Notes under the pieces: model-generated
Told to the model about the DNA's origin: nothing
The model's database searches: none
Seen by the model: only the letters and a program-made list of their open reading frames with translations
Program-made: the position numbers and the translations under genes
Shown: in pieces, positions 2,705 to 53,074 of the stretch
Position numbering within the stretch: position 1 is the first letter of the stretch
Layout of the letters: the number at the start of each line of letters is the position of its first letter
Origin: a virus
IMG/VR virus record: IMGVR_UViG_3300035670_009931
Span: 1-64,000 of that record
Length of the DNA stretch: 64,000 nt
Reading direction: 5' to 3' (one strand)

Positions 2705-3373
2705 TTAAATTTCTGGAAATAATGTTTCTTCTATAAAATTTGTGATTTCTTTTTTATCTATGCCCATTGAAACCATACTATTTAGAACATGTGGATTTTG
2801 CTTTTGGAAAAAACAGTAACGATTTTGGTAGTCTGCATAGTTACTCTCAGTTGCCGATCCTATATTTTCTAGATAATATGTAAGACTTTCTAGAGCTATA
2901 TTTTTCAATTGATTTATTTCTTCAATATCTTGAAGATTTCCGGCTGCTATCATGGCTGGACTAAATATTTGTTTCGCCCATTCTGGTAGTTGCCTAGGTT
3001 TGTTCCAATTTAAATTTTTAGTTTTTTCTTCAAACCAGTTGAATATTGAATTATCATCTGTATTTGTTAAACTAAAGTCGTGGAATGCACCTGTAATTTT
3101 ATTTTGACCACATACAGCGTCAAATCCCCATATTGGACTAGGATCATTAATATGGGGAAATATTGTACAATGTAAAATATAGATCTTATGGGTTGATCTT
3201 TTATCAACTATTTCAATGTGTGCACGACGATAAAGTTTACTTGTATAAATGTTGTTATACCAACTATACTTTTCTTCTATGCCATTAATTTTAGATCCAG
3301 TTTCGTTAAATTTATTTTCTATTTTAACGGCTAGATCCGAAATTTCATTCCAAATCAATGACATTGTAGTCAT
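2705..3373 (-). CDS. pcyA: Phycocyanobilin:ferredoxin oxidoreductase (ferredoxin-dependent bilin reductase)
   Basis: ILHCTIFPHINDPSPIWGFDAVCGQNKITGAFHDFSLT aligns with the conserved PcyA core (ILHCVMFP...PLFGCDIVAG...ADLSPT). The gene is adjacent to ho1. Confidence 0.7.
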   Translation of the reverse strand: MTTMSLIWNEISDLAVKIENKFNETGSKINGIEEKYSWYNNIYTSKLYRRAHIEIVDKRSTHKIYILHCTIFPHINDPSPIWGFDAVCGQNKITGAFHDFSLTNTDDNSIFNWFEEKTKNLNWNKPRQLPEWAKQIFSPAMIAAGNLQDIEEINQLKNIALESLTYYLENIGSATESNYADYQNRYCFFQKQNPHVLNSMVSMGIDKKEITNFIEETLFPEI

Positions 3374-3884
3374 TCAATAATTTGATAGCCCAATCAAAAG
3401 CAATATTAGCTTCGTCAGCCATTGTATCTTTTAATTTAGCTCGTAAATTATTTTTCAATAATTCTGGATCTTTAAATGTTAAACTTAGATGTGATCCTGG
3501 AATTATTTTTTTGATCATTTGCCCACCATATAAATCACCCATATGCCATACATAGAGGTGAGCCATAATTCTATCTTTATCTGGGAATAGTTTTAAAATA
3601 TAATTATGGTAATCTATTGCTGGTTGTCTGAATTTATGAAATGTATCTTTATTAGTATTATTATTATAATCTCTATAAAGATAATGTGTTCTGCAAATAT
3701 CTGGAAGATCTGTCAAAAGACCACAAGCTCCAGCTACACCTTCAATCCCATTATAGATTAATTGTCGTTGATAGATATAATCACACCATATATTAAAAGG
3801 AAGTTTGTTTTTAAAGATGGCTTGCATGAAATTGGTTTTTTCTGCAATATCATGCTTTTCTTTTGTTAATTCTTTTAAACTCAT
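3345..3884 (-). CDS. ho1: Heme oxygenase
   Basis: HO-like N-terminus (LKELTKEKHDIAEKTNFMQAIF). The start is placed at the internal Met whose ATG overlaps the clpS stop (GCATGAGT). The upstream part of the track ORF would overlap clpS. Confidence 0.6.
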   Translation of the reverse strand: MSLKELTKEKHDIAEKTNFMQAIFKNKLPFNIWCDYIYQRQLIYNGIEGVAGACGLLTDLPDICRTHYLYRDYNNNTNKDTFHKFRQPAIDYHNYILKLFPDKDRIMAHLYVWHMGDLYGGQMIKKIIPGSHLSLTFKDPELLKNNLRAKLKDTMADEANIAFDWAIKLLNDYNVIDLE

Positions 3885-4186
3885 GCTTCCTCTACTCGTA
3901 CTTTTAATGGCCAACCATTTGCTCTTGCCAAATCAATAGTATCGATTGATTTTTGCTCGGCAATTTCATAACTATATATAGCTACAGTTGATTTACCTTC
4001 TGTATGAATTTGCATCATGAGTTCTTTTGATTTGGCTTCACTGTGTTTAAAAACTTTCATTAACACAGCAACCACAAATTCCATAGGTGTATGATTATCA
4101 TTTAGAAAAATCACGGCATATTTTTTTGGAGCTATAATTTTTTCAGAAGATAGTTTTTTCTTTTCAAGAATTATTTCTGTTGACAT
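3881..4186 (-). CDS. clpS: ATP-dependent Clp protease adaptor ClpS
   Basis: The core motif YAVIFLNDNHTPMEFVVAVLMKVF matches ClpS. The track start at 4216 is a TTG codon. An ATG at 4186 gives a 101-aa product close to ClpS size. Confidence 0.7.
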   Translation of the reverse strand: MSTEIILEKKKLSSEKIIAPKKYAVIFLNDNHTPMEFVVAVLMKVFKHSEAKSKELMMQIHTEGKSTVAIYSYEIAEQKSIDTIDLARANGWPLKVRVEEA

Positions 4187-4190
4187 AGTA

Positions 4191-4227
4191 TAAAAATTTA
4201 TTGAAAAATGGGGCAAGATGCCCCATT
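4191..4227 (-). terminator. Hairpin plus T-run after hsp20 (terminator or attenuator between hsp20 and clpS)
   Basis: Minus strand reads AATGGGGCAtctTGCCCCATT, then TTTTCAATAAATTTTT. Confidence 0.45.
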
Positions 4228-4230
4228 AGA

Positions 4231-4668
4231 TTACTCAGCCTTGATTTGTAATACTCTTGGCTTTAGTGCTTCGGGAATTACTCGATTAAGAGTAATTGAC
4301 AAAACTCCGTTTTTAATTTTACCTTCATTTACTTCCATATGTTCTGGAAGTAACCATGCACGTACAAACTTACGTGCTGCTAATCCACGATGAATGTAGT
4401 ATGATTCATCAATAGAATCATCCTTAACTTTTTCACCACGGATAATTAGTTGATTTTGATCAATTTCAACAGTAACCTCGTCAGGTGAAAATCCTGTAAC
4501 AGCAATTTCCAATTCATATTTATTTTCATCTTTTTTAATGAAATTAAATGGAGGATAAGAACTGCTAATTTGATTAGCGAACTTACGCTCAAAGTCGTTG
4601 AAAATAGAATCAAAACCTAGAAGTGCCTTTTGTAGGGCTGTAGTATCAAAACGTGTTAAACTATTCAT
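4231..4668 (-). CDS. hsp20: Small heat-shock protein (Hsp20 / alpha-crystallin family)
   Basis: 145 aa. The alpha-crystallin core (ELEIAVTGFSPDEVTVEIDQNQLIIRGEK...LPE...NGVLSITL) is present. Confidence 0.8.
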   Translation of the reverse strand: MNSLTRFDTTALQKALLGFDSIFNDFERKFANQISSSYPPFNFIKKDENKYELEIAVTGFSPDEVTVEIDQNQLIIRGEKVKDDSIDESYYIHRGLAARKFVRAWLLPEHMEVNEGKIKNGVLSITLNRVIPEALKPRVLQIKAE

Positions 4669-9937: not shown

Positions 9938-10072
9938 TTACTGGATTTCGTAATCTTCTTTACCGCAACCACATTCTGGACAAACAAAATCTTCGGGTAA
10001 TGTATTCCATGCACCTTCTAGATCGTCATCGTGGACATGGCCACATACTACACAAACATGTTGTTCACTCAT
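9938..10072 (-). CDS. Rubredoxin (44 aa; below the ORF-track size cutoff)
   Basis: Hand translation gives MSEQHVCVVCGHVHDD...FVCPECGCGKEDYEIQ with CxxC...CPxCG motifs. Its ATG overlaps the rubrerythrin stop (ATGA). Confidence 0.6.
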   Translation of the reverse strand: MSEQHVCVVCGHVHDDDLEGAWNTLPEDFVCPECGCGKEDYEIQ

Positions 10073-10521
10073 AGTTCAATCCCTTCTAGTTTACGCTTAT
10101 ATGCTTCTGCATGACGCTTTTCAACTTTTGCCAATGCGTCAAACCTCTTTTCTGCCTTCTTTAGAATTTCTAAAAATTCAGCAGCATGTGCTTGTGATTC
10201 ATTGATCTGCTCTGAAAATTCGCTTGCAGCACCATGCTTTTCGATGTTAGCTTGCTTTTCGAACTCAGGATACATTTCAGTGAATTCATAAGTCTCACCT
10301 TCAATTGCTTTTTCCAAGCATTCCTTTGTACTAGGCTTACCGATTAATAGTTCAAGATGACCCCAAGCATGAAGAATTTCTTGATCTGCGGTATGCTCAA
10401 AATGCTTTGCAATATCTTCAAATCCTTCTTCTCTTGCAATCCTTGCAAAATAACGGTATTTAATATGTGCCATGCTTTCTCCAGCAAGAGCACTTTCTAG
10501 ATTTTTTAATGTTACACTCAT
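10069..10521 (-). CDS. Rubrerythrin-like diiron (ferritin-like) protein
   Basis: ExxH diiron motifs (EGETYEF, EILHAWGHLE). The rubredoxin gene lies immediately downstream. Confidence 0.65.
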   Translation of the reverse strand: MSVTLKNLESALAGESMAHIKYRYFARIAREEGFEDIAKHFEHTADQEILHAWGHLELLIGKPSTKECLEKAIEGETYEFTEMYPEFEKQANIEKHGAASEFSEQINESQAHAAEFLEILKKAEKRFDALAKVEKRHAEAYKRKLEGIEL

Positions 10522-10688
10522 ATATTTCCTTTGTTAAGATTTTTTGCTTCTAATTCCCTAAGATCCATAGCCACATCGGCTACACCATGCCAATCTTGAA
10601 GTGCAACCATCACTTGAAGATATTCAAGTAAAATTTCTTTTTGCACATAAAAATCAGAATAGTCTTTATTTAAATATTCGTTATTCAT
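10518..10688 (-). CDS. Small hypothetical protein translationally coupled to rubrerythrin
   Basis: Hand-translated ORF of about 56 aa. Its TGA stop overlaps the rubrerythrin ATG. Confidence 0.35.
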   Translation of the reverse strand: MNNEYLNKDYSDFYVQKEILLEYLQVMVALQDWHGVADVAMDLRELEAKNLNKGNI

Positions 10689-10698
10689 AGTTTTTAAA

Positions 10699-11439
10699 TT
10701 AATAGTTTACTTTTTGCCATGTAGCACCATGAAACGGTGCTTTTTCATTTTCTGGTCTATCCGCTGTATAATAATACAATGCCAATGCAATCCTACTAAC
10801 ATTAGGAGGACAAACTAAAGGTATTGGATGACCATGATATGCATCATCTGTAATAGTAAAAATAACTGCTCTATTGAATATAGGTTTAACTTTTACTACA
10901 CAACGACTCAGATCCCTTTCCCATAATTCTAACTCACCGTTATATTCATCTTTCCAGTCTTCATTTAAATAAAGAAGCAGATTCAATCTTCTATGAAGAT
11001 TGTTTTTCCAATGAATATTGAAATCAGCATGTATATCTAATTTACCACCAGAATTTACTTTATGAATTCCACCACCCAACCAATCACTATCGGTTTGTAG
11101 GTTTTTAATGCCAGTTAAATTTTCTAGAAAATCTAACATTTCTCTAGAATGAAAATACTGTAATACGGTACTAGTAAATGGACAATTCTTTTCTAAAGAT
11201 TCCATCGACTGTTTGAATACATAATCATCTGGAGATGGAGTATAATATTTATTTACTTGTACTCCTGCTTCTTGTCCTTCAATATCGGTATACCAATCAG
11301 TATGATTTTTTATTTCTGACAAGACTAGCTTCATAATTTCTTCTGGAAAGAAATTATCAAGAACAATATGTGGAAATGGCTTTGCTTCCACATATTGTTT
11401 GTGTTTTAATTCAATATTATTTTTTGTATCTTTAAGCAT
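10699..11439 (-). CDS. 2OG-Fe(II) oxygenase-superfamily protein
   Basis: A HxD...H facial-triad-like pattern (LDIHADF ... YHGHPI) in a 246-aa ORF. Confidence 0.5.
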   Translation of the reverse strand: MLKDTKNNIELKHKQYVEAKPFPHIVLDNFFPEEIMKLVLSEIKNHTDWYTDIEGQEAGVQVNKYYTPSPDDYVFKQSMESLEKNCPFTSTVLQYFHSREMLDFLENLTGIKNLQTDSDWLGGGIHKVNSGGKLDIHADFNIHWKNNLHRRLNLLLYLNEDWKDEYNGELELWERDLSRCVVKVKPIFNRAVIFTITDDAYHGHPIPLVCPPNVSRIALALYYYTADRPENEKAPFHGATWQKVNY

Positions 11440-11513
11440 AAAATTAAAAAGTTAATGGGGATATTTATCTCTATCTTTTTTACAAAGAAAGAATTTTTTT
11501 TGTGAAAGTAAAA

Positions 11514-11548
11514 CCGTCTAGAATCATTTTTTTTATGATTCTAGACGA
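11514..11548 (-). terminator. Perfect 13-bp inverted repeat with a T8 loop (likely terminator downstream of the SPFH gene)
   Basis: CGTCTAGAATCAT-tttttttt-ATGATTCTAGACG. It lies inside the 61-aa track ORF 11480-11665, which is probably spurious. Confidence 0.4.
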
Positions 11549-11664
11549 AGACATATATTTTATGTCTTGAGAAGAGGAGAGTTTATTCGCTACTCTAGAC
11601 CCTATATATTGTTGACCTGTCTGGTCACAGATTAACATGTATGTATATGGTCTAGCTATGCACA

Positions 11665-12459
11665 TTATTTAATTGTTCCAAGAGCAGTTAGATTAGATGG
11701 AATAATCATAGTATTTACTTTTCCATCACGTACTGCCTCTGCTATAATCAGGGAGGCTTGAGCTTTCATGTATTCAATAGTTTGAGGACCATTGCTAGCT
11801 AGCATTTGCTGGCGCTTTGCTTCTAGCTCAGCAGTCTTTACTTGAATTTCACGTTGCTTAAGTTCGTTTTTAGCACGAACTAGTTCGTTTGCACTAGCAA
11901 CAACTGAGTCAGCAGGAACAACATTACGGATAAGAACCTGCGTAATATTTAGACTTCCGTCTAGCTTTTCTTCAGCAAGGTTACGAACAATTTCTTCCTT
12001 AATGAAAGTTTCCATGTCTGAGCGGTTATCAGCCATATCCAAAGCCTCGTACTTTCGTGCAGCCTTGTACGCAGCGTTACGAGCATTTTGCACAATATAA
12101 TTATACATTAGAAAAACGTCACCGTCTCCAACTGCGTGGAACGCCCTGTTCTTAGTAGCATATAGTTCACTAACCTGTCCAGGATTGATGTTATAAACAA
12201 CAACTAGATCAAAGTCCTTCATTGTTGAATTGTCCTTTGCAACAGGAGTCATATTCTCCATCACAACATTAACGTCCTTAACTGGAAACGTTAGAACATT
12301 TCCGACGATGGTTTGATTAAAACTTCCAGGAAGTAATTCACCTGGTTGAATCTGCTTAGTAAAGTCAATACGAACCCCTACCTCACCGGTTTCGATACGA
12401 GTACAACCCGCAGCAAGAACGGCAGCGGCAAGAACACCTAGAGTAAAAATACGCTTCAT
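11665..12459 (-). CDS. SPFH/band-7 (prohibitin/HflKC-like) lipoprotein
   Basis: Start placed at MKRIFTLGVLAAAVLAAGC (signal peptide plus lipobox) with an upstream AGGA. The band-7 core is followed by a coiled-coil. GC content is elevated. Confidence 0.65.
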   Translation of the reverse strand: MKRIFTLGVLAAAVLAAGCTRIETGEVGVRIDFTKQIQPGELLPGSFNQTIVGNVLTFPVKDVNVVMENMTPVAKDNSTMKDFDLVVVYNINPGQVSELYATKNRAFHAVGDGDVFLMYNYIVQNARNAAYKAARKYEALDMADNRSDMETFIKEEIVRNLAEEKLDGSLNITQVLIRNVVPADSVVASANELVRAKNELKQREIQVKTAELEAKRQQMLASNGPQTIEYMKAQASLIIAEAVRDGKVNTMIIPSNLTALGTIK

Positions 12460-12570
12460 TTTGAAATTTCCTTTAAATGACAAAATTAAAAATAACTGCC
12501 GCAGATACAACAGCACCTAGAACAAAATACATAACACGACCAACAATATTCATGATAACTTCCTTTTAAG

Positions 12571-12762
12571 TTAGAAAAAGATAACAATCAACGTTAACAC
12601 TGCTAACGTCAGACAAGCACATATTGTACTATATACGATCAACTTTGTCAACTGCCATTTTTCCTTTTGTGTAGTATTACGGACAGAATTAATACCAAAG
12701 TAAAACGCACCAAATAAAACTAGAAATGCAATAATAGCGTTAATCATTTTATACCTGCTCAC
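12571..12762 (-). CDS. Small membrane protein (2 TM)
   Basis: 63-aa ORF with two hydrophobic helices. Confidence 0.4.
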   Translation of the reverse strand: MSRYKMINAIIAFLVLFGAFYFGINSVRNTTQKEKWQLTKLIVYSTICACLTLAVLTLIVIFF

Positions 12763-13213
12763 TCATTTCAAGTTCTTTTTTCAACTTATTAAAAAGTTTA
12801 ATTTTATCTTTTAATTCTTTTTCCTTTTTTTCAGCTAATTTTTCAGCTAATTTTTTAGCTCTGTTGACAGCTAGAACTTCTGCTTTCTTCATACGAGTTT
12901 CATATTCTTTATCTGTTTCTAGACGTTCTACATGAACTACTACATAACTAGCGTTAATATCAATTCGTACTGATCTCTTATAAAGAAATTCCTGCTCAAG
13001 ATACTTTTGCTTGAGTTGTTTGATCTTTTCAATCATATGATCAAACGTTAACGGAGAGTTATCGGTTTCATAAAAAAGACCAAACACTGAATAATGATCA
13101 GTTGAGATTCTTATGGTTTTACGTTGTTTCGATGAGGTATTTGATGCCATGATAATCCCGGTTAGAAGTTGAAATTTTATATTTCTCTGACTAGAGAAAT
13201 TAAATTCTAACAC
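12749..13213 (-). CDS. Hypothetical protein (start uncertain: GTG at 13213 or ATG at 13150)
   Basis: 154-aa ORF with a lysine-rich, coiled-coil-like C-terminus. Confidence 0.4.
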   Translation of the reverse strand: MLEFNFSSQRNIKFQLLTGIIMASNTSSKQRKTIRISTDHYSVFGLFYETDNSPLTFDHMIEKIKQLKQKYLEQEFLYKRSVRIDINASYVVVHVERLETDKEYETRMKKAEVLAVNRAKKLAEKLAEKKEKELKDKIKLFNKLKKELEMSEQV

Positions 13214-13228
13214 AGGATTCAGGTACTG

Positions 13229-13465
13229 TCAATACATTTTTTTAGGTAGTTCTTGATCTTTGAGTTTCTTAATCCACCTAGCACGTGCTGCACTTTGCTT
13301 ACGCTTTTTTACAGTAGTAGGTTTTTCATAATGCATTTTTTTTCTTAAATCTTCAAGAATGCCAAGATCATCTACCCGTTGTTTAAATTTTCTTATGGCA
13401 ACTTCAATAGGTAAGTCACCAACAATAATTTTACTTCCTCTTAGATTATTTTTGTTTTTGTTCAT
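13229..13465 (-). CDS. rpsU: 30S ribosomal protein S21 (bS21)
   Basis: KIIVGDLPIEVAIRKFKQ...HYEKPTTVKKRKQSAARAR aligns with E. coli S21 (VALRRFKR...FYEKPTTERKR). Confidence 0.75.
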   Translation of the reverse strand: MNKNKNNLRGSKIIVGDLPIEVAIRKFKQRVDDLGILEDLRKKMHYEKPTTVKKRKQSAARARWIKKLKDQELPKKMY

Positions 13466-14684
13466 ATTTTTCTTTATTAAAAATTAATAATGGAGATTGT
13501 CCATTAACTACATCCTTATTTATAAGTATTGATTTTAAATTTTTCTCAGCTAAATTCATTGCATCATATTGATATGGTAATAGGATTTTTTCCATAATGT
13601 TTTTTAAACCACGTGCATTTGTTTTTAACTCTTTTGCTTTATTTGCTATTTCTATTAAAGCGTCGTTTTCAAATTTAATATCAATTCCGTCCAACTTAAA
13701 AATATATTCATATTGATTTATTAAACTATTCTTCGGATCTTTTAAAATCCTAACTAAATCTTCAGTAGTTAATTCATCGACACTGGTTATCAAACCAAAT
13801 CTACCAATAAATTCTGGTATAAATCCGTATTGTATTAAATCTTTTGGCGTTACTTCTGTAAACTCAACTAAAGACTTTTCAGTAACTGTTGAAACAGCTG
13901 TATTGAATCCTATAGTTTTTGGTTCTTTTCTACTTTGTATTATTTTTTCTAAACCAACAAATGCACCACCACAAATAAAAAGTATATCAGAAGTATCAAT
14001 TTCCATTATATCAGAATTGGGGTGTTTTCTTTTTCCAGAATTAGGCACTCGTACAATATTTCCCTCTATCATTTTTAGCAAGGCTTGTTGTACACCCTCA
14101 CCACTTACATCTCTTGTAATTGATACGTTTTCTCCTTTTCTAGCGATCTTATCTATTTCATCTATGTAAACAATCCCTCTACTTGCTTTAGATAGATCAC
14201 CATCTGATTCATTAATTAATCTTGAAAGAATACTTTCTACATCATCGCCTACATATCCTGCTTCAGTTAAACTAGTAGCATCACAAATTACAAATGGTAA
14301 ATCTAAATATTCTGCAATCTTTTTAGCCAGCATAGTTTTACCAGATCCAGTTGGTCCTAAGAGTAAAACATTTGTTTTTTCTAGTTTTATAGATTTAGAT
14401 GGATTATTAATTCTTTTAAAATGTTGGCTAACTGCCACTGATAGGGTCATCTTTGCATTTTCTTGACCAATGATATATTCATCAAGATATTCTTTTATTA
14501 AAGAAGGATTTAGTAACTTTTTTGTATTTGGTAAATTTTTTACTTTTTCATCATCTAAAATATCTATGCACAGATCTACACATGAATTACATATTGCAGC
14601 GTATTCACCGACAATTAATTTTTCTACTTCTTCCTTATTCTTTCCACAAAAGCTACATGAATGTTCACTGTTTTTGCTCATCAA
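13446..14684 (-). CDS. clpX: ATP-dependent Clp protease ATP-binding subunit ClpX
   Basis: N-terminal C4 zinc finger (CSFCGK...CNSC), Walker A LLLGPTGSGKT and a ClpX-like IGF-type loop GFIPEFIGR. Confidence 0.85.
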   Translation of the reverse strand: MMSKNSEHSCSFCGKNKEEVEKLIVGEYAAICNSCVDLCIDILDDEKVKNLPNTKKLLNPSLIKEYLDEYIIGQENAKMTLSVAVSQHFKRINNPSKSIKLEKTNVLLLGPTGSGKTMLAKKIAEYLDLPFVICDATSLTEAGYVGDDVESILSRLINESDGDLSKASRGIVYIDEIDKIARKGENVSITRDVSGEGVQQALLKMIEGNIVRVPNSGKRKHPNSDIMEIDTSDILFICGGAFVGLEKIIQSRKEPKTIGFNTAVSTVTEKSLVEFTEVTPKDLIQYGFIPEFIGRFGLITSVDELTTEDLVRILKDPKNSLINQYEYIFKLDGIDIKFENDALIEIANKAKELKTNARGLKNIMEKILLPYQYDAMNLAEKNLKSILINKDVVNGQSPLLIFNKEKYEQKQK

Positions 14685-15063
14685 ATACTCTTTCTAAAAA
14701 TTTATTAATATCTGTGATTCTGTTTTGATTTAAATGATTAATTATTGCTACAAAATTTTCATCTGATGATTGATAAAAAAAGTTATTATTTGCTAACATA
14801 TAACTGGCTAATACATTTACTAAATGGTTTTCCGTATCTAAATCTATGAATTTATAATCACTCCGACTTACTGCGTATAGTAACCAAGAGATATTAGTTT
14901 CATTTGTAAAAACATAAAAATTATAATTTTCTTTTAATTCTATTTCTGACAAGTATTTAGTTACTTTTTCTTGATCTGAATCAGAAATGTTTATAAACAA
15001 AACACTTTTATTATTATTTTCATAAAAGTCTGGTGGAGTTATTAATGTTATTTTACCGTCCAT
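14665..15063 (-). CDS. Hypothetical protein
   Basis: Track ORF trimmed to the internal Met (MDGKITLI...) to avoid an 83-nt overlap with the upstream gene. Confidence 0.4.
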   Translation of the reverse strand: MDGKITLITPPDFYENNNKSVLFINISDSDQEKVTKYLSEIELKENYNFYVFTNETNISWLLYAVSRSDYKFIDLDTENHLVNVLASYMLANNNFFYQSSDENFVAIINHLNQNRITDINKFLERVFDEQKQ

Positions 15064-15064
15064 A

Positions 15065-15424
15065 TTATCCTCTGCGCATCTTTGCGCTATCAATAGCTTC
15101 TTGTTGGTTGAATACTGGTTGTAAACAACTTTTATGTTGTACGACAATACCTTTTACCATATCACCTGTATATTTTTGATTTGGCTTAGAACTTACTGGA
15201 CCAGTAACCCAACTGTTTAAACTTTTTGGTCTAGTGTCAGTAATAATATTAGATTTAATCACCTTAGTCTCAACTGGTTTAGTAGTAACTGGTTTTGTTT
15301 TATATTTGTTTTTTAGTTCTTCCCAGCTTTTTTCAAGAGCCAATGCATTTCGTTTTTGTTCGGCACTTGCCCACTTTTTCTTTTTATTCTTTGAACTTGA
15401 TACAGGTGATGAAATAATACCCAC
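15065..15424 (-). CDS. Hypothetical lysine-rich protein
   Basis: 119-aa ORF. Confidence 0.4.
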   Translation of the reverse strand: MGIISSPVSSSKNKKKKWASAEQKRNALALEKSWEELKNKYKTKPVTTKPVETKVIKSNIITDTRPKSLNSWVTGPVSSKPNQKYTGDMVKGIVVQHKSCLQPVFNQQEAIDSAKMRRG

Positions 15425-15491
15425 AATTTTTCCTCTGAAAGTTAATCCAACTGTATTTTACTTTTTTGTATGAATTAAGTCAAGTACAATT

Positions 15492-16436
15492 TTACCATAC
15501 AAAATTTTCTGAATAATATTGAACTATCTTTTTTAACTCTTTATCAAAATCTGCTTTTGGTATCCAACCTAATTTTTTTATTTTTGAATCATCTAATGCG
15601 TATCTCACATCACCACCTGGACGAGTAAGGTGTTCTATATATGGCCATGGATCTTTTTTACCATTATACAATTTGATTATTTTACTGACAACTTCTATAT
15701 TTGGACATTCAAAGTTTCCATTTATATTGTATATCTCATTCTTGGAATTACTTTTGATTATTGTTATAACAGCATTTGCAGTATCCGAAACATGTAGCCA
15801 ATTTCTTTTTGGTTTACCCTCATCATGTAATTGAATTTTTTTGTCAAGCATTAAATGCTTACAGGTTTTTGGTATTAGTTTTTCAACGTACTGACCAATT
15901 CCATAATTATTTGTTGGTCTAACAATTACGTATGGTAAGTTGAAAGTTCTTGCCCATGCAAGAATTAACATATCTGCTGCTGCTTTAGATGCAGAATATG
16001 GGTTACTTGGTTTTAATAAATCTAGTTCACTATGCTGACCAACTTCAATATCACCATAAACTTCGTCCGTTGAAAAATGAAGTATAGTTGGCATTTTGTA
16101 TATACTTTTTTGTTTGATCAATTCTAGAAGTTTATGCACACCATTGATATTAGATTTTAAAAATACATCGGATGAAACTATGCTGTTATCTACATGAGTC
16201 TCAGCCGCAGTATTAATAACATAGTCACAATCATATAATCTATCTAAATCATTTATATCTGATTTAATAAATTTAAATTGATCTCCATATATTTCCAAAT
16301 CTTTTAATAAATCTATATTAGCGGCATATGTAATTTTATCAACACCAATTACATACCAACCTTGGTCCAAACATTTTTTAGCAATATTAAAACCAATAAA
16401 CCCTAAACATCCAGTAACATACACTACTTTTTTCAT
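15492..16436 (-). CDS. NDP-sugar 4,6-dehydratase / NAD-dependent epimerase (SDR family)
   Basis: N-terminal GxxGxxG (VTGCLGFIGFNI) and catalytic YxxxK (YSASKAAAD). Confidence 0.7.
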   Translation of the reverse strand: MKKVVYVTGCLGFIGFNIAKKCLDQGWYVIGVDKITYAANIDLLKDLEIYGDQFKFIKSDINDLDRLYDCDYVINTAAETHVDNSIVSSDVFLKSNINGVHKLLELIKQKSIYKMPTILHFSTDEVYGDIEVGQHSELDLLKPSNPYSASKAAADMLILAWARTFNLPYVIVRPTNNYGIGQYVEKLIPKTCKHLMLDKKIQLHDEGKPKRNWLHVSDTANAVITIIKSNSKNEIYNINGNFECPNIEVVSKIIKLYNGKKDPWPYIEHLTRPGGDVRYALDDSKIKKLGWIPKADFDKELKKIVQYYSENFVW

Positions 16437-16444
16437 TTTTATCC

Positions 16445-17239
16445 TTAATTAAAATAATTTTTAATTCCAAAATTTAAACCTAATAAATTTATGTTTAAAT
16501 TATCTATCCGAGAACTATTTCCAGTATAATTTAATTTACTATCAGAATCAATAATAATTTCATTTTTTATACCATGAGTATTAACGAATGTTTTTAAAAA
16601 ATCACTGAGTTTAATTTTTTGAGAATATACACAATTAATGTCTTTTATATCAACATCATTTTCTATCACAAATTCCGTTATTTTGCATAAATCTTGTATA
16701 CTTATATAATCAAAAAATCTATCATTAGATAATTTAAAGGTATCATTAGTTGATAGTAACTTTGGAATCAACCTAGTGTTTTTTTCATTAGATCCAAAAC
16801 AACCAAAAATTCTTAAGGTCATCAAGTTATCTTTCTCATAACATAATCTACTCATCATGTTATGACCATATCCATAACTATCTTCTGGCAGTTTTACAAA
16901 TATGTCTACTTCTCTTGCATTCTCTATATTGGTTGTTCTATCAAATTCTGCACCAGACCCATAATGAATAAACTTACCAAACTTAGATGAATTATTATAA
17001 AAATTCATAAAAATGCTAAGATTGTTTCTAGTATCCACTAGTAATGGGTCTGAACTATATGAAACTGCTGTATTTAAAATGCAGTCAAAATAATTACTAG
17101 AAAGAAAATGTTTAACATCAACGTAATTATATAAGTCTAATCTCTCTCTAGTTACAGGTATTACATCAAACTTTTTAGACAAAAATTTTACCAAATGGTT
17201 ACCAATAAAACCATTAGATCCTAAAACAGCTATTTTCAT
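16445..17239 (-). CDS. NAD(P)-dependent sugar epimerase/reductase (SDR fold)
   Basis: N-terminal Rossmann motif VLGSNGFIGNHL. Confidence 0.55.
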   Translation of the reverse strand: MKIAVLGSNGFIGNHLVKFLSKKFDVIPVTRERLDLYNYVDVKHFLSSNYFDCILNTAVSYSSDPLLVDTRNNLSIFMNFYNNSSKFGKFIHYGSGAEFDRTTNIENAREVDIFVKLPEDSYGYGHNMMSRLCYEKDNLMTLRIFGCFGSNEKNTRLIPKLLSTNDTFKLSNDRFFDYISIQDLCKITEFVIENDVDIKDINCVYSQKIKLSDFLKTFVNTHGIKNEIIIDSDSKLNYTGNSSRIDNLNINLLGLNFGIKNYFN

Positions 17240-17985
17240 ATTTTCAAAAGTTCTTTAACGACAAGCTCATTTTCTAATTCAGCTTCATCAAGAAATGGTG
17301 TCATGTCGTGTAAACCAGCTTGTTTACCATTTTTTAATGCTTGAGCAGGTAAAATTTCTTGATCTTTTTTGCAACGACAATCTATGATACATGGGCCGGG
17401 TTTTTCTAGTATAATTGAAAATTTATTTAGATCATTAGCCAATCGCATATCTACAAAATCTATACCAAATGCAGTGGCAACGTTTTTAAAGGAGGGAAAC
17501 CATAAACCAGTTTCATTACTAGTCCCATACACTCTACCTTCAAAATACTTAGTTTGTGTATTTTTAATACTTAAATATCCATCATTGTTCAATATAACAA
17601 ATTTAATATTCAAATCATGTTGTTTGACTGTAGCAAGTTCTTGAATATTACTCATAAAACTACCATCACCTATGATACTAATGACTTGTTGGTTACTTGC
17701 CATACTGACACCAATAGATGCTGGGAGTGCCCATCCCATATCAGCCTGTGCTGGACTAAAAATAAAACGTTGACCTGTCTTAGCATTTAACGCTACTGGC
17801 CCTGCATAACTAATACTACCAGCATCACCCATCAGAATATCTTCAACCCTACTATGTTTATTAATAGCATCTAATACAGCGTAGATATTCAAATCGTAAT
17901 CTCTATTGTTTGCTTCGTATTCTGGTTGCATTACTGGCCATATATTTTTCCAGTGATTGCATTTATCAATCCAATCTTGATTCAT
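17236..17985 (-). CDS. TPP-dependent enzyme, C-terminal TPP-binding (PP) domain (acetolactate-synthase-like)
   Basis: GDGSF...N TPP-binding motif (IIGDGSFMSNIQEL). The ORF overlaps the upstream N-terminal ORF by 4 nt. Confidence 0.65.
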   Translation of the reverse strand: MNQDWIDKCNHWKNIWPVMQPEYEANNRDYDLNIYAVLDAINKHSRVEDILMGDAGSISYAGPVALNAKTGQRFIFSPAQADMGWALPASIGVSMASNQQVISIIGDGSFMSNIQELATVKQHDLNIKFVILNNDGYLSIKNTQTKYFEGRVYGTSNETGLWFPSFKNVATAFGIDFVDMRLANDLNKFSIILEKPGPCIIDCRCKKDQEILPAQALKNGKQAGLHDMTPFLDEAELENELVVKELLKI

Positions 17986-18995
17986 ACTAGCATTTCCTTA
18001 AAAAAATCTTTTAAATTGATATTATATTTTTCATGTATTTCAATTATATCTTTATTCAATTCATTTTTGTCTATGTCAATCATAATTTTATAACTGTATG
18101 GACTAAACTGTTTTGGATCATATCCTATTACGCTAGCTCCTAAACTGCTACCAAGAACTATCATTAGATCAGCGTTTTGCATGGCAAAATTTCCAGCCCT
18201 GCTACCTTTTATTCCTATTGCACCTATACTTAGGTTATGTGAATTTGCAGTATAATCTCTTGCACCATAAGTGCTTACATATGGTATGTTATATTTTTCT
18301 ATAAATTGTACAAATTCTTCCACTGTATTACTTTGTCGTATACCATAGCCTGCAATAATAATAGGACGAGTAGACCTTTCTATTGTTTTTTTAATTTTTG
18401 AAACATCATTATTAAATTCGTTATTAAAGCTAGGATGATATGTTCTGTATTTTGATGGCATTTGAGCAGTTTGTATATCACCTGGGATATCTACCCATAC
18501 TGGTCCAGGTCTATCACTTTGTGCAATATGAACTGCATATTGTATTGCATATACAACATCTTCAATGTTGTCAACAAAGCAACTAAATTTAGTCATAGAT
18601 GAATAAGTTTCAACAATATTATGTTCCTGAATTCCATATTTTCTAATATTAACGTTTTTAGTTCTATTAATATAATTGCTACATGTAGATAATCTAACGT
18701 TACCAGATAAAAATAGAACAGGTACACTATCTTGCCATGCATTAAGAACACTGGTGGCACAATTTGTACCAGCGCATCCTGTGGTAGGATTAACAACGGA
18801 AAGTTTTCCAGTAAATTTACTTTCACCTATTGCAGCATGACCAGCACTTTGTTCGTGATGATAACAAATATAGTTTATTTTTCCATTTTTAATAAACCCG
18901 TCATTCAATCCACTTGCGCCACCACCCATTAAACCATGAACATTTCTAATTCCTATATTGTACAGGTAGTCGGCTATCCAATCACATACTCTCAT
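17982..18995 (-). CDS. TPP-dependent enzyme, N-terminal Pyr plus central domains (partner of 17236-17985)
   Basis: Pyr-domain-like N-terminus. The two ORFs together total about 586 aa, the size of an ALS/YerE-type enzyme. Confidence 0.6.
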   Translation of the reverse strand: MRVCDWIADYLYNIGIRNVHGLMGGGASGLNDGFIKNGKINYICYHHEQSAGHAAIGESKFTGKLSVVNPTTGCAGTNCATSVLNAWQDSVPVLFLSGNVRLSTCSNYINRTKNVNIRKYGIQEHNIVETYSSMTKFSCFVDNIEDVVYAIQYAVHIAQSDRPGPVWVDIPGDIQTAQMPSKYRTYHPSFNNEFNNDVSKIKKTIERSTRPIIIAGYGIRQSNTVEEFVQFIEKYNIPYVSTYGARDYTANSHNLSIGAIGIKGSRAGNFAMQNADLMIVLGSSLGASVIGYDPKQFSPYSYKIMIDIDKNELNKDIIEIHEKYNINLKDFFKEMLV

Positions 18996-19008
18996 ATTAT
19001 CTCCGGTT

Positions 19009-20334
19009 TTATAAAAATAAACTCATGAAGTTATCAACTTTTTCTCCTATATATGATATCTGTTCAGGTGTTATCACTGGACTAGTTCCATGGAAAAAAG
19101 TATTTTTCATAACAAAAGTTGCCACTGGAAAATTATTTTTTGCATCTTCTGGATTCATCAAATGACTATATGCTGGTTGTAACATAATATTTCCAGCAAA
19201 ATATGGCCTAGTTTGTATGAGATTTGTTTCAAGATAATCGACCAAATCAAATCTAGAGAATGGCGCATTCTCCCTTATTGTCAAGGGGAACGCAAACCAA
19301 CTAGGATCACTTTTATTTTGTGCTGTCGGTAAATGAAAGAACTCTTCATACTTTTTATAGATATCTAAAAGCAAACTATAATTTCTTCTTCTTAATTGAT
19401 GAATGGTTGGCAACTTATCTATTTGAACTAGACCCATAGCCCCCTGCAATTCTATCGGTTTCAAATTAAATCCAATTTCATCATATACATACTTGTGATC
19501 AAAAATTTCATTTTTCATACAAGGTATCCATTCTGAGAAACGTTTACCGCATGTACCACACTGCAATTTATTTGCTTCTGGTCCAACACAGTAGCAACCT
19601 CGTCCCCATTCTCTAAATGACCTAGCGATAACTTCTAAATCATAAGTTTTGCAAGCAACAAAACCCCCCTCACCCATTGTCATATGATGTGCTGGATAAA
19701 AGCTACAGCTAGCCATTTCACCAAAACTACCTAAAGGTTTGCCATCATATGTGCTACCTAACGCATCACAGCAATCCTCTAGTAAAATTAAATTATACTT
19801 TTTAACCAATTCCATTACTTGATCCATATTTGGTGGATTTCCCAGTACATGAGCAAAAGTTATTACACGTATATTATGTTCTTTAATTAAATCTTCAGCT
19901 TTGGATAAATCTAAATTTAATGTATCTATTTCAATGTCCAAAAATACTGGTTCAAATCCCATTTGTAAAGTTGGGTTCAATGTAGTTGGAAATCCAGCTA
20001 TAGGCATTAAAACTTTAGTTCCTTTTGGTAAGTTATATCCTCGCTTTGATGTCAGGGTTGCCATCATAAGTAGGTTTGAACTAGATCCACTATTAGTTAA
20101 AATACCATGTTCTTTACCAAATTGTTTTGGGAACTCTTTTTCAAATTTTAAACATTTATCTCCCATAACCAACCAACCATCTAACATGGAAGATATAGAA
20201 GATACAAATTCATTTTCATCAAAATATGGACCGGCATAATTTACAAAATCTTTACCTGCTATCCATTTTTTATTTTGATTTTTATTTTTTATATATTCAT
20301 TAATATTTTGTAAAATTTGTTCTTTAGTTATCAT
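19009..20334 (-). CDS. DegT/DnrJ/EryC1-family PMP-dependent sugar 3-dehydrase (DdhC/RfbH E1-like)
   Basis: Fold-type I sugar aminotransferase core. The usual SF(Y/H)PTK lysine is replaced by His (SFYPAHHMT), as in E1 dehydrases. A cysteine cluster (CYCVGPEANKLQCGTCGKRFSEWIPC) could bind Fe-S. Confidence 0.6.
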   Translation of the reverse strand: MITKEQILQNINEYIKNKNQNKKWIAGKDFVNYAGPYFDENEFVSSISSMLDGWLVMGDKCLKFEKEFPKQFGKEHGILTNSGSSSNLLMMATLTSKRGYNLPKGTKVLMPIAGFPTTLNPTLQMGFEPVFLDIEIDTLNLDLSKAEDLIKEHNIRVITFAHVLGNPPNMDQVMELVKKYNLILLEDCCDALGSTYDGKPLGSFGEMASCSFYPAHHMTMGEGGFVACKTYDLEVIARSFREWGRGCYCVGPEANKLQCGTCGKRFSEWIPCMKNEIFDHKYVYDEIGFNLKPIELQGAMGLVQIDKLPTIHQLRRRNYSLLLDIYKKYEEFFHLPTAQNKSDPSWFAFPLTIRENAPFSRFDLVDYLETNLIQTRPYFAGNIMLQPAYSHLMNPEDAKNNFPVATFVMKNTFFHGTSPVITPEQISYIGEKVDNFMSLFL

Positions 20335-21176
20335 TCTTGAATTTGTCCTTTCATAGTATTATACACTACTTTTAAACGATCTCCAAACCTGTCCCATGCA
20401 ACAGTATCTTCTTCATTATTAAGGTTTTGTTGATGCCAAAATTCATCAGTAATATATGCACCGGGATCTGTAGGTTTTCTATCTGCTTGTTGACCAACTA
20501 CTTGTTTAACTGTTTTAAAGAATTCCCAACTCTTAGAGTAATAATGATGTATTCGTAATTTATCATGACTTATTGCACTGCATGGATAATTTAATCCTTG
20601 GGTTATTAATCTACCTTCAACATCATATGTTCCATATTCAGTACCTAAACAATGACCATCTTTTCTTACCCAAATATTACCTGCATTTGGACCTCCCCGT
20701 AAAATTGATTTTATATGATGATTTAGTTTATGATTTAACGGTGCTCTTTTTGTAAAACATTCTGTAACTAAGCTAGGTTCCCAACTTATATGCCCATTAT
20801 TACCAAACATTGTCCAGTAAATACCCAGACAACTCAAACGTAAATTCATGTAATTTACTAAGAAATCTTTAATATTATGGTGTTGTATGGGTACATAGAA
20901 CTCATCTGCATCTGCACTGATTATCCAATCAAATTCTCCACTAGCACGATGCTGAAATACATACTCCCAATACCTATTACCAGCATCATTGCCTATAACT
21001 TGCATGGGTCTTATATCATAAAACTTTGATAATTTTTTTATAATATCAAAACTTGAATCAGTGCTCATATGATCATATACTAGAAATGTATCCACTCCTA
21101 ACATATGATACCATGCAAACCATTCTATTAAATGTCTTGAATTATTTCGTTGTATTAAACTTACTGCAATTTTCAT
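20331..21176 (-). CDS. Glycosyltransferase (GT92/DUF23-like)
   Basis: Pattern HLIEWFAWYHMLGVDTFLVYDHMSTD resembles the GT92 signature. Assignment by recall only. Confidence 0.45.
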   Translation of the reverse strand: MKIAVSLIQRNNSRHLIEWFAWYHMLGVDTFLVYDHMSTDSSFDIIKKLSKFYDIRPMQVIGNDAGNRYWEYVFQHRASGEFDWIISADADEFYVPIQHHNIKDFLVNYMNLRLSCLGIYWTMFGNNGHISWEPSLVTECFTKRAPLNHKLNHHIKSILRGGPNAGNIWVRKDGHCLGTEYGTYDVEGRLITQGLNYPCSAISHDKLRIHHYYSKSWEFFKTVKQVVGQQADRKPTDPGAYITDEFWHQQNLNNEEDTVAWDRFGDRLKVVYNTMKGQIQE

Positions 21177-21179
21177 ATA

Positions 21180-21833
21180 TTATCTTATAATAAATTGTGA
21201 ATAATAATCAAATGCTTTTAATCTAAAATTTAGATCAGTTGCTGGCCATTGTATTACAAAATCACCTAGTGACCAATCACCAACTGTTCCCAATTTATCA
21301 ATAAGTGGCTCCGGATAACGACCTCTATACAATGAATAATTGTATGAATTCATTACCTTTTGAGGAACTAATTTGACTAAATCATTTTTATATTTTTCAT
21401 ATGTATCTTTCATAATACCCTGTTCACCTTCCCAATTGGTATATGTCGGTAAAGTTTCAGCTATCATGTTTAGATAATCTCTACCTTCGGGCGAATTTCT
21501 AAGTAGAAAACTATCAGAGTTGATACCATTAAAATCTGATGCAATAATTAAATGATAATTTGTATCAGCTATATCTTCTAATTTTATTTTAAAATTGGTG
21601 ATCATTAAATCACCACCTGTCCACCATATCCAAGAATCATTTTCAATCTTACTAATAACATCTTGTAAAATTTGTATCTTAGCAATTTGGGCTGAACGCA
21701 TATCATTCCACGTAATCAATCTTAAATCATGATTGTATCCATGTAAATTACAATATGGAACTTTATTATTGTGCCAAGTTTTATCCATTAATGGCTGATA
21801 TGTACTATCATAATAACTAACTAATGTAAACAT
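21180..21833 (-). CDS. Hypothetical protein, possible glycosyltransferase
   Basis: 217-aa ORF located inside the glycan cluster. Confidence 0.35.
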   Translation of the reverse strand: MFTLVSYYDSTYQPLMDKTWHNNKVPYCNLHGYNHDLRLITWNDMRSAQIAKIQILQDVISKIENDSWIWWTGGDLMITNFKIKLEDIADTNYHLIIASDFNGINSDSFLLRNSPEGRDYLNMIAETLPTYTNWEGEQGIMKDTYEKYKNDLVKLVPQKVMNSYNYSLYRGRYPEPLIDKLGTVGDWSLGDFVIQWPATDLNFRLKAFDYYSQFIIR

Positions 21834-21836
21834 CTA

Positions 21837-22766
21837 TTAACCTATTGTTGTTATAGTTTTCTTCTCAGTGGAATGGTCTGTTTTCTTTATTAGATATTCA
21901 ACAATTTGAGAGGCTATATTTTCATTTACTGTATTACTAAAATATGTATTAGCGTTGTACTCACCTTTACCAGTTAAACAATCAGTTGCTCGAAAATTAA
22001 ATGAAAGAAATGTTTTACTTGAATCTAACAAATTTTCTTTAGTGTGACAGAAACTAAATGGTCCGCTATTTTTTCCAACAATTAGTTTTGCATATTTACT
22101 TAGAAAAGATATTTGATTTAGATTTCCTTCATTTGCAGAAAACAAATCATCAGTATATGTAATATTTGGTCTGTTAATGTTTAGTTTATGTGCAACTAAA
22201 AATTCATGATCTTTGAATTTATCTGCCATATCTTTAATGGTGTTTTCCATTATGCCCATTGCACTTTGACCACTTTGTTGAATACCATTACAAAATAAAA
22301 CAATTGGTTTCTGTGATTTTTCTTTCAAATACTTATGACAAGCATCCAAATCAAATTTAGAATAATCAGTTTCAGGTAAGTAATAACTAAAATCATTATC
22401 AAACTTTATATCAAGAATCTCAAAGTATTCTCGCCATGCTGAATGTAAAAGCGGATAATTAGCATGATGACCGGGAGCTAGATGCTTTCCGATCCATGAT
22501 CCTATCCATGTACTAATAAATAATGTGCCACTATCTTCATGAAAAATATATGGCAATTCTTTTTTTACATCTCTAAATGGTATTTGATATGTTCTAATAA
22601 ACCTACAATCAACATCTGCGATAATGCTTTCATGCTTATCGTGGGCATAAGAAAAACCAACGTCATCTAATTGACGTATGATATCTTTTACGAATCCTTT
22701 GGTGACAAAACAGTCACCATTTTTTTCGTAATTGTAAAATATAATATTGTTAAGAGTCGTATACAT
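21837..22766 (-). CDS. Hypothetical protein (glycan-cluster member)
   Basis: 309-aa ORF. Confidence 0.4.
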   Translation of the reverse strand: MYTTLNNIIFYNYEKNGDCFVTKGFVKDIIRQLDDVGFSYAHDKHESIIADVDCRFIRTYQIPFRDVKKELPYIFHEDSGTLFISTWIGSWIGKHLAPGHHANYPLLHSAWREYFEILDIKFDNDFSYYLPETDYSKFDLDACHKYLKEKSQKPIVLFCNGIQQSGQSAMGIMENTIKDMADKFKDHEFLVAHKLNINRPNITYTDDLFSANEGNLNQISFLSKYAKLIVGKNSGPFSFCHTKENLLDSSKTFLSFNFRATDCLTGKGEYNANTYFSNTVNENIASQIVEYLIKKTDHSTEKKTITTIG

Positions 22767-22768
22767 AA

Positions 22769-24067
22769 TTATTGTTTTGTTATTAATTTAATTAAATTAT
22801 TGGCAATTTCTTCAATCACGTTTACTGTTACTGAATTACCAAATAGATCAAAAATTTCTTCTGTTGTTAAGTGATTCGTTTTATATGTTAAAGGAAATCC
22901 AAATAATTTTTTAAGCTCGGAATGACTAAGTTTTCTTAGACCAGTATTTTCAATTACCCCCAAACGAGTTGAATCCGTAGCAACTACAGTTGGAATAATA
23001 TTATTATCATCAATTATTTTACTAAATTCAAAACTTAATTTACCAGTTGTTAATGTGTATCCCATTGGTAAATCAGTCCTTTTTATTTTTGTTTTAACAT
23101 TATTAATTATTTTATAGTCTTTTAAATATTCTTGTTTTAGATAACCTTTTTCAGTTAGTGCATTTAAATCATTTTCTAAATTTTCATAATCCATAAATGT
23201 TTTAATTTGATTTAAAGAAAGAGGAATCCCATCGAACCAAGATGTACCATTTTCTACGGACCATTTTTTATTTCTTCTTTTTACTATTAAAGAATTAATT
23301 AGTTCTTTTTGTTTTGGTGTGATTGATCCTTTTATACCCAAATCCCAACTATGAATATTATTATCTCCACCTCTTTTGTCATTAATTGATTTACCAGCTA
23401 ATAAATTTAGATTATTAAATGATGATTTTAAAAGAAAATTTAATTTACTATTTGGTGTTTCTAAGTTATAATCTCTAATATCTTTAAAAGTAACAGCTTT
23501 AAAATTTGTACTAAAATCAAATATATTTTGTAAATTTAGATTTAAATCTTTTCTAACTCCAGCAATATAAATTCTTTTTCTCCCTTGAGCTAGCCCAAAA
23601 TTTTTAGAATTTAATAATTTCCATGAAAAATCATATCCTATTTGATCAAGTATTGCCAATATCGTAGATAAAGTATTTCCTTTATTATGGTTTATTAAGC
23701 CTTCTACATTTTCCAAAATAAAACATTTTGGTTTTATATCATTGAGGATTCTTGCAACTTCAAAAAATAATGTACCCCTAGTGTCTTCAAACCCCAAACG
23801 TTTTCCAGCAGATGAAAACGCTTGGCAAGGGAATCCAGCCAATAAAAAATCAAATGAACCTAATTCAGATGTATTAATTTTTCTAACATCTTCAATATTT
23901 GATTTTTCAAAATTAAGTTGGTATGTTTCTATTGCTGATTTTTTTATATCAGATGATAGTATACATTCACCAATTAAATTATTTCTTGACAGTGCTTGTT
24001 GAAGTCCTAGTCTAAATCCACCTATTCCACAAAATAAATCTATAAATTTTATTTTTTCATTAATCAT
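22769..24067 (-). CDS. dcm: DNA (cytosine-5)-methyltransferase
   Basis: Motif I FCGIGG, motif IV GFPCQAFS, motif VI ENV and motif X GNSVTV are all present. Confidence 0.8.
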   Translation of the reverse strand: MINEKIKFIDLFCGIGGFRLGLQQALSRNNLIGECILSSDIKKSAIETYQLNFEKSNIEDVRKINTSELGSFDFLLAGFPCQAFSSAGKRLGFEDTRGTLFFEVARILNDIKPKCFILENVEGLINHNKGNTLSTILAILDQIGYDFSWKLLNSKNFGLAQGRKRIYIAGVRKDLNLNLQNIFDFSTNFKAVTFKDIRDYNLETPNSKLNFLLKSSFNNLNLLAGKSINDKRGGDNNIHSWDLGIKGSITPKQKELINSLIVKRRNKKWSVENGTSWFDGIPLSLNQIKTFMDYENLENDLNALTEKGYLKQEYLKDYKIINNVKTKIKRTDLPMGYTLTTGKLSFEFSKIIDDNNIIPTVVATDSTRLGVIENTGLRKLSHSELKKLFGFPLTYKTNHLTTEEIFDLFGNSVTVNVIEEIANNLIKLITKQ

Positions 24068-24095
24068 TATAATTTCCAGATTTATTTAATAAATT

Positions 24096-25319: not shown

Positions 25320-25339
25320 TTTTTTCCTTGTTATTGGTT

Positions 25340-26008: not shown

Positions 26009-26024
26009 ATATTAGTTGTTTAAT

Positions 26025-26414: not shown

Positions 26415-26415
26415 A

Positions 26416-53064: not shown

Positions 53065-53074
53065 GATGTAATCC

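Follow-up and report, generated by a model that had tools for sequence, protein, structure and literature searches.

The 64,000-nucleotide stretch of viral DNA analysed here (positions 1 to 64,000 of IMG/VR record IMGVR_UViG_3300035670_009931, in the following the window) carries an rpsU-like gene, and its product of 78 amino acids (aa) is a true phage-carried homologue of the bacterial ribosomal protein bS21 (S21). The gene lies on the minus strand and starts inside the end of clpX. A preliminary description of the window, made from the letters alone, had proposed a phage S21 at this position and left the strand unstated. Phage-encoded bS21 is already known (Mizuno et al. 2019; Al-Shayeb et al. 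2020; Chen et al. 2022), and the locus is a further example of it. Based on sequence comparison and on analogy with known systems, our overall reading, to which we give a probability of about 60%, is that the gene encodes a functional phage bS21 that is coupled to clpX and would retune translation initiation on the host 30S subunit.

The assignment to the S21 family was tested against profiles and known structures. The 78-aa open reading frame (ORF) matched Pfam PF01165 (Ribosomal_S21) over residues 13-63 with E=7.6e-14 and 51.6 bits at a gathering score of 27, NCBIfam TIGR00030 (S21p, an equivalog) with 49.6 bits at a cut-off of 28.95, and PHROG 21469 ('ribosomal protein S21') with E=1.8e-13. 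Thus the Pfam and NCBIfam scores exceed the curated cut-offs, and the profile search that the preliminary description had named beforehand as its refuting test gave clear matches in three profile libraries. When all PDB chains were searched with the protein by phmmer, the only matches were 24 distinct bS21 sequences (best E=1e-12), with residues 17-73 aligned to the 71-aa bS21 chains of solved ribosomes. The best-matching 71-aa chains include those of the entry sets 6v39 (presumably Acinetobacter baumannii) and 10fz (presumably Escherichia coli). The weakest PDB match was the Flavobacterium johnsoniae chain 7jil (E=0.0017), which is named in Chen et al. (PMC9723584). The phage protein has an isoelectric point of 10.4 and contains 23 lysine and arginine residues. 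An alignment to bS21 over the full length had been proposed; this holds for residues 9-78, which match the 70-71-aa proteobacterial bS21 end to end including the C-terminal ...MY or ...LY, but not for residues 1-8 (MNKNKNNL), which are an N-terminal extension without cellular counterpart.

The window stems from a phage. Among its products are a virion structural protein (phrog_1645, E=3e-108), whose nearest relatives are in cyanomyophages and Puniceispirillum phage HMO-2011 (43-49% identity), and in addition baseplate-wedge-like and tail-fibre-connector-like proteins, a class I ribonucleotide reductase and an ATP-dependent DNA ligase. Nearly all larger ORFs (58 of the 64 with at least 120 aa) are located on the minus strand, and the GC skew is negative almost throughout. 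The proposal that the S21 gene is phage-borne was borne out by the virion genes of the window and by the S21 relatives found on IMG/VR viral contigs. A megablast search with positions 12000-16000 gave no match in 50,697 deposited phage records, and since near-identical DNA is absent from deposited phages, the window comes from an uncultured phage rather than from a sequenced isolate. Metagenomic contigs (208 kb and 374 kb) and IMG/VR contigs of up to 246 kb share the S21 gene module. Contigs with the same module carry auxiliary genes of aquatic phages, coding for a RuBisCO-like protein, PstS-like proteins and TerC. Among bona fide phages, the ClpX of the window is closest (about 50%) to that of the jumbo phages Atu_ph07, Phosso and G. 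Most probably, the phage is a member of an aquatic lineage of large phages related to T4. A freshwater origin is suggested by identifiers only: the IMG sample numbers of several related loci fall in the same series as those of Lake Mendota metagenome-assembled genomes. A Shine-Dalgarno (SD) core (GGAG, GAGG or AGGA at -20 to -4) precedes 27 of 60 window genes, compared with 7% of random positions. This enrichment indicates that phage and host use SD initiation and argues against a Bacteroidetes host.

What sets the locus apart most is the overlap of the S21 gene with clpX. The preliminary description had put clpX directly upstream with 20 nt in common, and this is exact. The clpX gene ends with TAA at 13446-13448, and S21 begins with ATG at 13465-13463. 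On the minus strand the junction reads ...TTT AAT AAA GAA AAA TAT GAA CAA AAA CAA AAA TAA in the clpX frame, with the S21 start inside it as AAA T/ATG AAC AAA AAC.... The bases upstream of the S21 start (TTTAATAAAGAAAAAT followed by ATG) contain no SD core, and the close clade of phage S21 genes is likewise without one. Terminating ribosomes can reinitiate at starts tens of nucleotides away, in either direction. Because the S21 start lacks an SD motif and lies 20 nt inside clpX, S21 translation is probably coupled, or even slaved, to translation of clpX.

According to its gene order, S21 would be made as the last cistron of a string that consists of a 119-aa ORF, up132, clpX and rpsU (Table 1), and of these only up132 has a clear SD motif. 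The clpX gene shares its first 17 nt with up132 and lacks an SD core of its own. The 119-aa ORF is probably the first cistron of the string, and homologues of it lie upstream in the related loci L001, L002 and L008-L010. A candidate operon promoter precedes this ORF, and a second promoter-like match, TTGACA-17-TAGAAT, spans the S21 stop. In a promoter and terminator scan of the region, promoter-like matches were no commoner than in shuffled sequence. The clpX gene itself is complete. Its product scored 540 bits with profile NF003745 (cut-off 359) and 509 bits with TIGR00382 (cut-off 371), and comparison with E. coli ClpX revealed the C4 zinc finger, Walker A and B motifs, the GYVG pore loop, the RKH loop and the IGF ClpP-docking loop. 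Since ClpX is complete and has the IGF loop, it could work with ClpP of the host. A tblastn search of the window with the E. coli ClpP sequence found nothing; ClpP could come from the host or from another part of the phage genome.

Table 1. Features of the S21 locus and the clpS homologue within the window.
Feature	Position	Strand	Remarks
rpsU-like gene, 78-aa phage bS21	13229..13465	minus	ATG start; ORF list, profiles, alignment and AlphaFold2 model
clpX-S21 overlap	13446..13465	minus	20 nt, out of frame
complete clpX	13446..14684	minus	411/412-aa ORF; probable start ATG at 14681; homologues 410 aa
up132, 132-aa protein	14665..15063	minus	flavodoxin-like alpha/beta fold; AGAGGA SD motif
119-aa ORF	15065..15424	minus	phrog_27048; stop one base before the up132 ATG
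candidate operon promoter	15455..15483	minus	TTGACT-17-TAAAAT; consensus match only, in the gap upstream of the 119-aa ORF
clpS homologue	3881..4186	minus	PF02617, 95 bits; 9 kb from clpX

The gene order was compared in the 80 IMG/VR loci with the closest S21, out of more than 554 related S21 loci in that database. The clpX gene is directly upstream of S21 in 43 of the 80 loci. At S21 identities of at least 59% this was the case in 30 of 31 loci, the exception being locus L030 with clpX about 0.7 kb upstream, and the adjacency persists in many loci in which S21 and ClpX identities are down to 45-55%. A homologue of up132 takes the place of clpX directly upstream of S21 in 12 loci. The remainder had neither clpX nor up132 (20 loci), a flank too short to judge (4 loci) or clpX at 0.7 kb (1 locus). 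Accordingly, up132 in relatives either precedes clpX, as in 31 of the 43 clpX-S21 loci, or, where there is no clpX, adjoins S21 on its upstream side. An overlap between the S21 start and the preceding gene is nearly universal in the related loci and measures 4-38 nt for clpX and 17-20 nt for up132. As a comparison, 80 loci of cellular rpsU were inspected, and a ClpX match within 3 kb was present in only one of them, about 1.8 kb away.

The phage protein was then compared with its cellular relatives, using consensus sequences of 121 phage and 42 distinct betaproteobacterial sequences. The C-terminal half (residues 46-78, YEKPTT.RKRK..AA..R..K.L..Q.LPKKMY) has 23 of 33 consensus positions in common with betaproteobacterial bS21, the N-terminal half (residues 9-45) only 10 of 37 (27%). 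The N-terminal half is conserved among the phages themselves: G16, P19, K28, Q29 and E38 are invariant, V15 and D17 nearly so. The N-terminal extension of about 8 residues is basic and rich in asparagine and lysine. It occurs clade-wide in the phages with M1 and G10 conserved, and is absent from 79 cellular copies. It corresponds to the N-terminal extensions of phage bS21 described by Al-Shayeb et al. 2020 (PMC7162821). In an alignment of the phage, E. coli and HTVC008M bS21, the residues A23, K28, K48, P49 and R63 are invariant. An AlphaFold2 model predicted helices at residues 20-34, 36-44 and 51-71 and a disordered stretch at residues 1-8, with a mean predicted local distance difference test score (pLDDT) of 69.6. 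At this modest confidence, the predicted helices would fit the bS21 architecture, in which N-terminal helices are followed by a long C-terminal one.

A large protein database contains 164 homologues of 76-80 aa with 64-87% identity, all of them with PF01165. For the analysis of selection, 22 distinct sequences were compared over an ungapped core of 66 codons, with dN/dS taken from the 60 pairs with usable dS. Synonymous sites were saturated (median pS 0.77 versus pN 0.18). The median dN/dS was 0.14 and the maximum 0.29. Thus the phage S21 gene is under purifying selection. For viral bS21, a pN/pS of about 0.10 was reported by Mizuno et al. (PMC6375957). The GC content, proposed earlier as a route to the host, was computed; at 0.31 for the S21 gene, compared with 0.33 for the window, it is the phage's own. 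As the GC of the gene equals that of the window, the gene is fully ameliorated and an old resident rather than a recent capture.

For the origin of the gene, cellular relatives were collected by a scan of 185,579 species genomes, and their ranking applies among the matches listed. The closest cellular proteins in this set were 70-aa bS21 of Burkholderiales and Neisseriales, with 47-55% identity over residues 19-78; relatives in Limnohabitans, Polaromonas, Hydromonas and Neisseria were included. The C-terminus is QLPKKMY in these cellular proteins, ELPKKMY in the phage protein and RRTRLY in E. coli. The shared LPKKMY end lies outside the search pattern and therefore agrees independently with the ranking. 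A tblastn search with S21 against the 50,697 phage records gave weak matches only, and several of these were bacterial contigs evidently filed as phage. By sequence, the phage S21 is of proteobacterial type, distinct from the types of SAR11 phages and Bacteroidetes phages, and it probably derives from a proteobacterial gene, most like the Burkholderiales type among the matches listed. Two other identities were considered and rejected. A pelagimyophage identity fails because the S21 of HTVC008M is only 31% identical and has another gene context, and a Bacteroidetes-phage identity because the protein is of proteobacterial type.

What this protein might do on the ribosome is suggested by other bS21 proteins. 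A bS21 is anchored by its C-terminal helix, which lies between the anti-SD region and the 16S rRNA body, and the N-terminal helix sits on the anti-SD, where mRNA binds (Chen et al., PMC9723584). The bS21 of HTVC008M enters E. coli 70S ribosomes and alters their activity (PMC6375957). Because of the homology and of this precedent, we propose that the phage bS21, which keeps the C-terminal 16S rRNA anchor half, would occupy the bS21 site on the platform of the host 30S subunit, by the anti-SD tail. Its remodelled N-terminal half would then face the mRNA and anti-SD region. As the half that faces the mRNA has acquired a new sequence, conserved and with a basic tail, the new half and the roughly 8 basic residues may change initiation in favour of the phage, beyond replenishing bS21. 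A bias of host ribosomes toward phage mRNAs has been put forward as a hypothesis in the literature (PMC6375957, PMC7162821, PMC9723584), and it would fit the pattern of a conserved anchor and a remodelled N-terminal half.

Several points weigh against this proposal. On E. coli ribosomes, the HTVC008M bS21 cut in vitro translation to about 5% (PMC6375957), so that incorporation might inhibit translation or depend on the host instead of being selective. The leaders of the window genes have no one distinctive feature that would be an obvious target for a specialised bS21; SD cores occur in about 45%, and the others are A/T-rich. A Foldseek search of the S21 model against the PDB gave no match, and the pLDDT of the model is moderate. 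We take the missing match as probably uninformative for a protein that folds on rRNA. Finally, the origin of S21 is deduced from the cellular relatives among the matches listed.

The strongest alternative is a simple top-up, in which an ordinary bS21 keeps the host 30S subunits loaded after host shut-off, without preference for phage mRNAs. As bS21 is loosely bound and assembles late, additional protein would result in more initiation-competent ribosomes. Full family membership and the conserved rRNA-anchor half agree with this explanation, viruses tend to carry exchangeable ribosomal proteins, of which bS21 is one (PMC6375957), and the ordinary SD motifs in about half of the phage genes could be served by a standard bS21. 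However, a mere replacement should be host-like throughout, whereas the N-terminal half is only 27% identical and yet conserved among the phages, with the clade-wide extension in addition. We therefore consider a pure top-up unlikely, though still worth keeping in view.

A function linked to ClpX is a further alternative. Here, phage ClpX together with host ClpP would remove or degrade host bS21 or remodel the 30S subunit, or S21 would itself be a partner or substrate of ClpX. In this case the adjacency described above, in 43 of the 80 loci and even at about 45-55% ClpX and S21 identity, would have a functional meaning. The linkage is old and specific to phages, given the single cellular rpsU locus with ClpX within 3 kb, and the clpX-S21 order, followed by clpS, is also found in the cultured Salicola phage SCTP-2. 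The ClpX of the window keeps its IGF loop, and ClpS is encoded as well. The host-type N-terminus (M)TTIRVK is said to resemble the ClpX N-motif-1 degron, and the phage extension would bury this degron-like TTIRVK. In jumbo phage AP-J-162, clpX adjoins the gene for initiation factor IF-3 (PMC11242549). On the other hand, 12 sister loci have S21 after up132 without clpX and 20 have neither, so that a neighbouring clpX is not needed. Furthermore, bS21 exchanges on ribosomes unaided (established knowledge, cited in PMC6375957), the adjacency may only mirror a shared expression class of host-takeover genes, and a ClpXP-RpsU substrate connection is only indirect in the literature. Taken together, a ClpX-linked function is improbable. 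The same applies to its most elaborate form, a doubtful scenario in which up132-clpX-rpsU is a ribosome-takeover module: ClpX with host ClpP, perhaps with ClpS, would clear host bS21 or remodel the 30S subunit, and the co-translated phage bS21, its N-terminus masked by the basic extension, would be spared and take the site. If this were true, the module would yield phage-specialised ribosomes.

A gene that does not work, being a decaying captured host fragment or part of a window of cellular DNA, is very improbable and effectively refuted: among the 'phage' records with rpsU, some, such as Acinetobacter phage MD-2021a and a Salmonella record, are clearly contigs of bacteria, but here virion and baseplate genes, the single-strand layout, the window-like GC, the dN/dS of about 0.14 and hundreds of full-length relatives on viral contigs stand against it, and the closest cellular copies among the matches listed are only about 50-55% identical and lack the extension.

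Phage bS21 is the commonest ribosomal protein gene in viruses. Mizuno et al. 2019 found it in 1310 viral genomes and contigs, 90% of them aquatic, and reported purifying selection and incorporation into 70S ribosomes (PMC6375957). The bS21 of Pelagibacter phage HTVC008M (AGE60443, PMC6375957) likewise comes from a T4-related aquatic myovirus, and it is the only phage bS21 that was experimentally shown to enter 70S ribosomes. It differs by its low identity (31%, tblastn E=0.2), its alphaproteobacterial (SAR11) origin, the lack of an N-terminal extension and its position after a CobS-like gene instead of clpX. In pelagimyophages, S21 was described as not part of any gene cluster (Zaragoza-Solas et al. 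2020). The bS21 of freshwater Bacteroidetes phages (PMC9723584) also belongs to large aquatic phages, of up to 331 kb, and the same functional hypothesis was proposed for it. As in the window protein, the anchor is conserved and the N-terminal helix divergent, and the C-terminus is conserved within the clade. In contrast, it is of Flavobacteriia type with the anti-SD-blocking residue Tyr54, and the genes lie on the reverse strand inside a structural module (terminase large subunit TerL, major capsid protein and protease), while the window gene is co-oriented with clpX and overlaps it.

A cultured counterpart was found in Salicola phage SCTP-2 (MF360958), a T4-related jumbo phage of 440 kb with the order ClpX (gp194), S21 (gp193) and ClpS-like (gp192). 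The gp193 protein (ASV44208.1, MF360958 192454-192714), annotated as 'hypothetical protein', is an 86-aa bS21 homologue with 42% identity and has an N-terminal extension like the window S21. It differs in that its gene has its own GGAGG and a 16-nt spacer instead of an overlap, and the host is a halophilic gammaproteobacterium. The cellular bS21 of Burkholderiales and Neisseriales share with the phage protein the YEKPTTxRKRK motif and, in QLPKKMY, a similar C-terminus, and size and charge are comparable; however, they have 70 aa, no extension and no clpX neighbour. With respect to the mode of action, cellular precedents are available from studies on the ribosomes specialised by bS21 paralogues in Francisella (PMC9578407) and on the bS21-lacking ribosomes of Flavobacterium (PMC9976891), according to which swapping or omitting bS21 changes the mRNAs that are translated. 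These are cellular systems, and the phage bS21 can be likened to them by its presumed mode of action.

In the searchable literature we found no described link between clpX and bS21 in phages, no description of the SD-less overlapping up132-clpX-rpsU string or its extent across the proteobacterial-type clade, and none of the unannotated S21 homologue between clpX and clpS in SCTP-2. The locus defines a large, well conserved freshwater or aquatic clade of phage bS21 of the proteobacterial type that combines a cellular-like anchor half, a remodelled N-terminal half with a basic extension, and a putative SD-less coupling to clpX. SCTP-2 offers a tractable cultured system in which ribosome entry of phage bS21, changes in initiation and the role of ClpX can be addressed.

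Besides the S21 locus, several further gene groups, all on the minus strand, were noted. Downstream of the S21 string, positions 9938-12516 encode a 2-oxoglutarate-Fe(II) oxygenase (PF13640), an SPFH/Band 7 protein (PF01145), a rubredoxin of 44 aa and a rubrerythrin/ferritin-like protein of 150 aa; the latter two were recognised by eye, the rubredoxin by its two CxxC motifs and the other by its translation. Near the clpX-S21 pair of the loci L006 and L007 lies a protein with 72% identity to the SPFH protein. The clpS homologue of Table 1 belongs to a run of auxiliary genes of host-like character at 2705-4668, together with a ferredoxin-dependent bilin reductase (PF05996, 2705-3373), a heme oxygenase (PF01126, 3345-3884) and an Hsp20 protein (4231-4668). 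The combination of heme oxygenase and bilin reductase is best known from cyanophages, yet both the S21 type and the use of SD motifs suggest a proteobacterial host.

A cluster of about 12 kb (15492-27423) appears to serve the making and transfer of a modified deoxysugar. It contains two 4,6-dehydratases, an epimerase/reductase, a DegT-type aminotransferase, GT2-like and GT34-like glycosyltransferases, a sugar C-methyltransferase and a thiamine pyrophosphate-dependent enzyme split over two ORFs (17236-18995). A C5 cytosine DNA methylase (22769-24067) lies inside this cluster. The large subunit of the ribonucleotide reductase (38235-42151) looks interrupted. ORF 39896-42151 covers the N-terminal approximately 630 residues, ORF 38235-38774 the C-terminal end of the barrel domain (PF02867 positions 393-522), and between these parts a 399-aa ORF without family match (38755-39954) is located in another frame. 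The interruption may be a mobile insertion (an intein or a homing endonuclease) or a split gene.

An 838-aa ORF (27547-30063) combines an N-terminal lysozyme/chitinase-like part (endolysin PHROGs, about residues 87-313) with a C-terminal ParB-like part (about residues 662-748), which is an unusual fusion. A 1042-aa ORF without PHROG match (50068-53196) coincides with a local GC peak of 0.455, compared with about 0.33 for the window. ARAGORN called a tRNA with a four-base anticodon (ggac) and no amino-acid identity (518-592), which adjoins a normal tRNA-Tyr (84-167).
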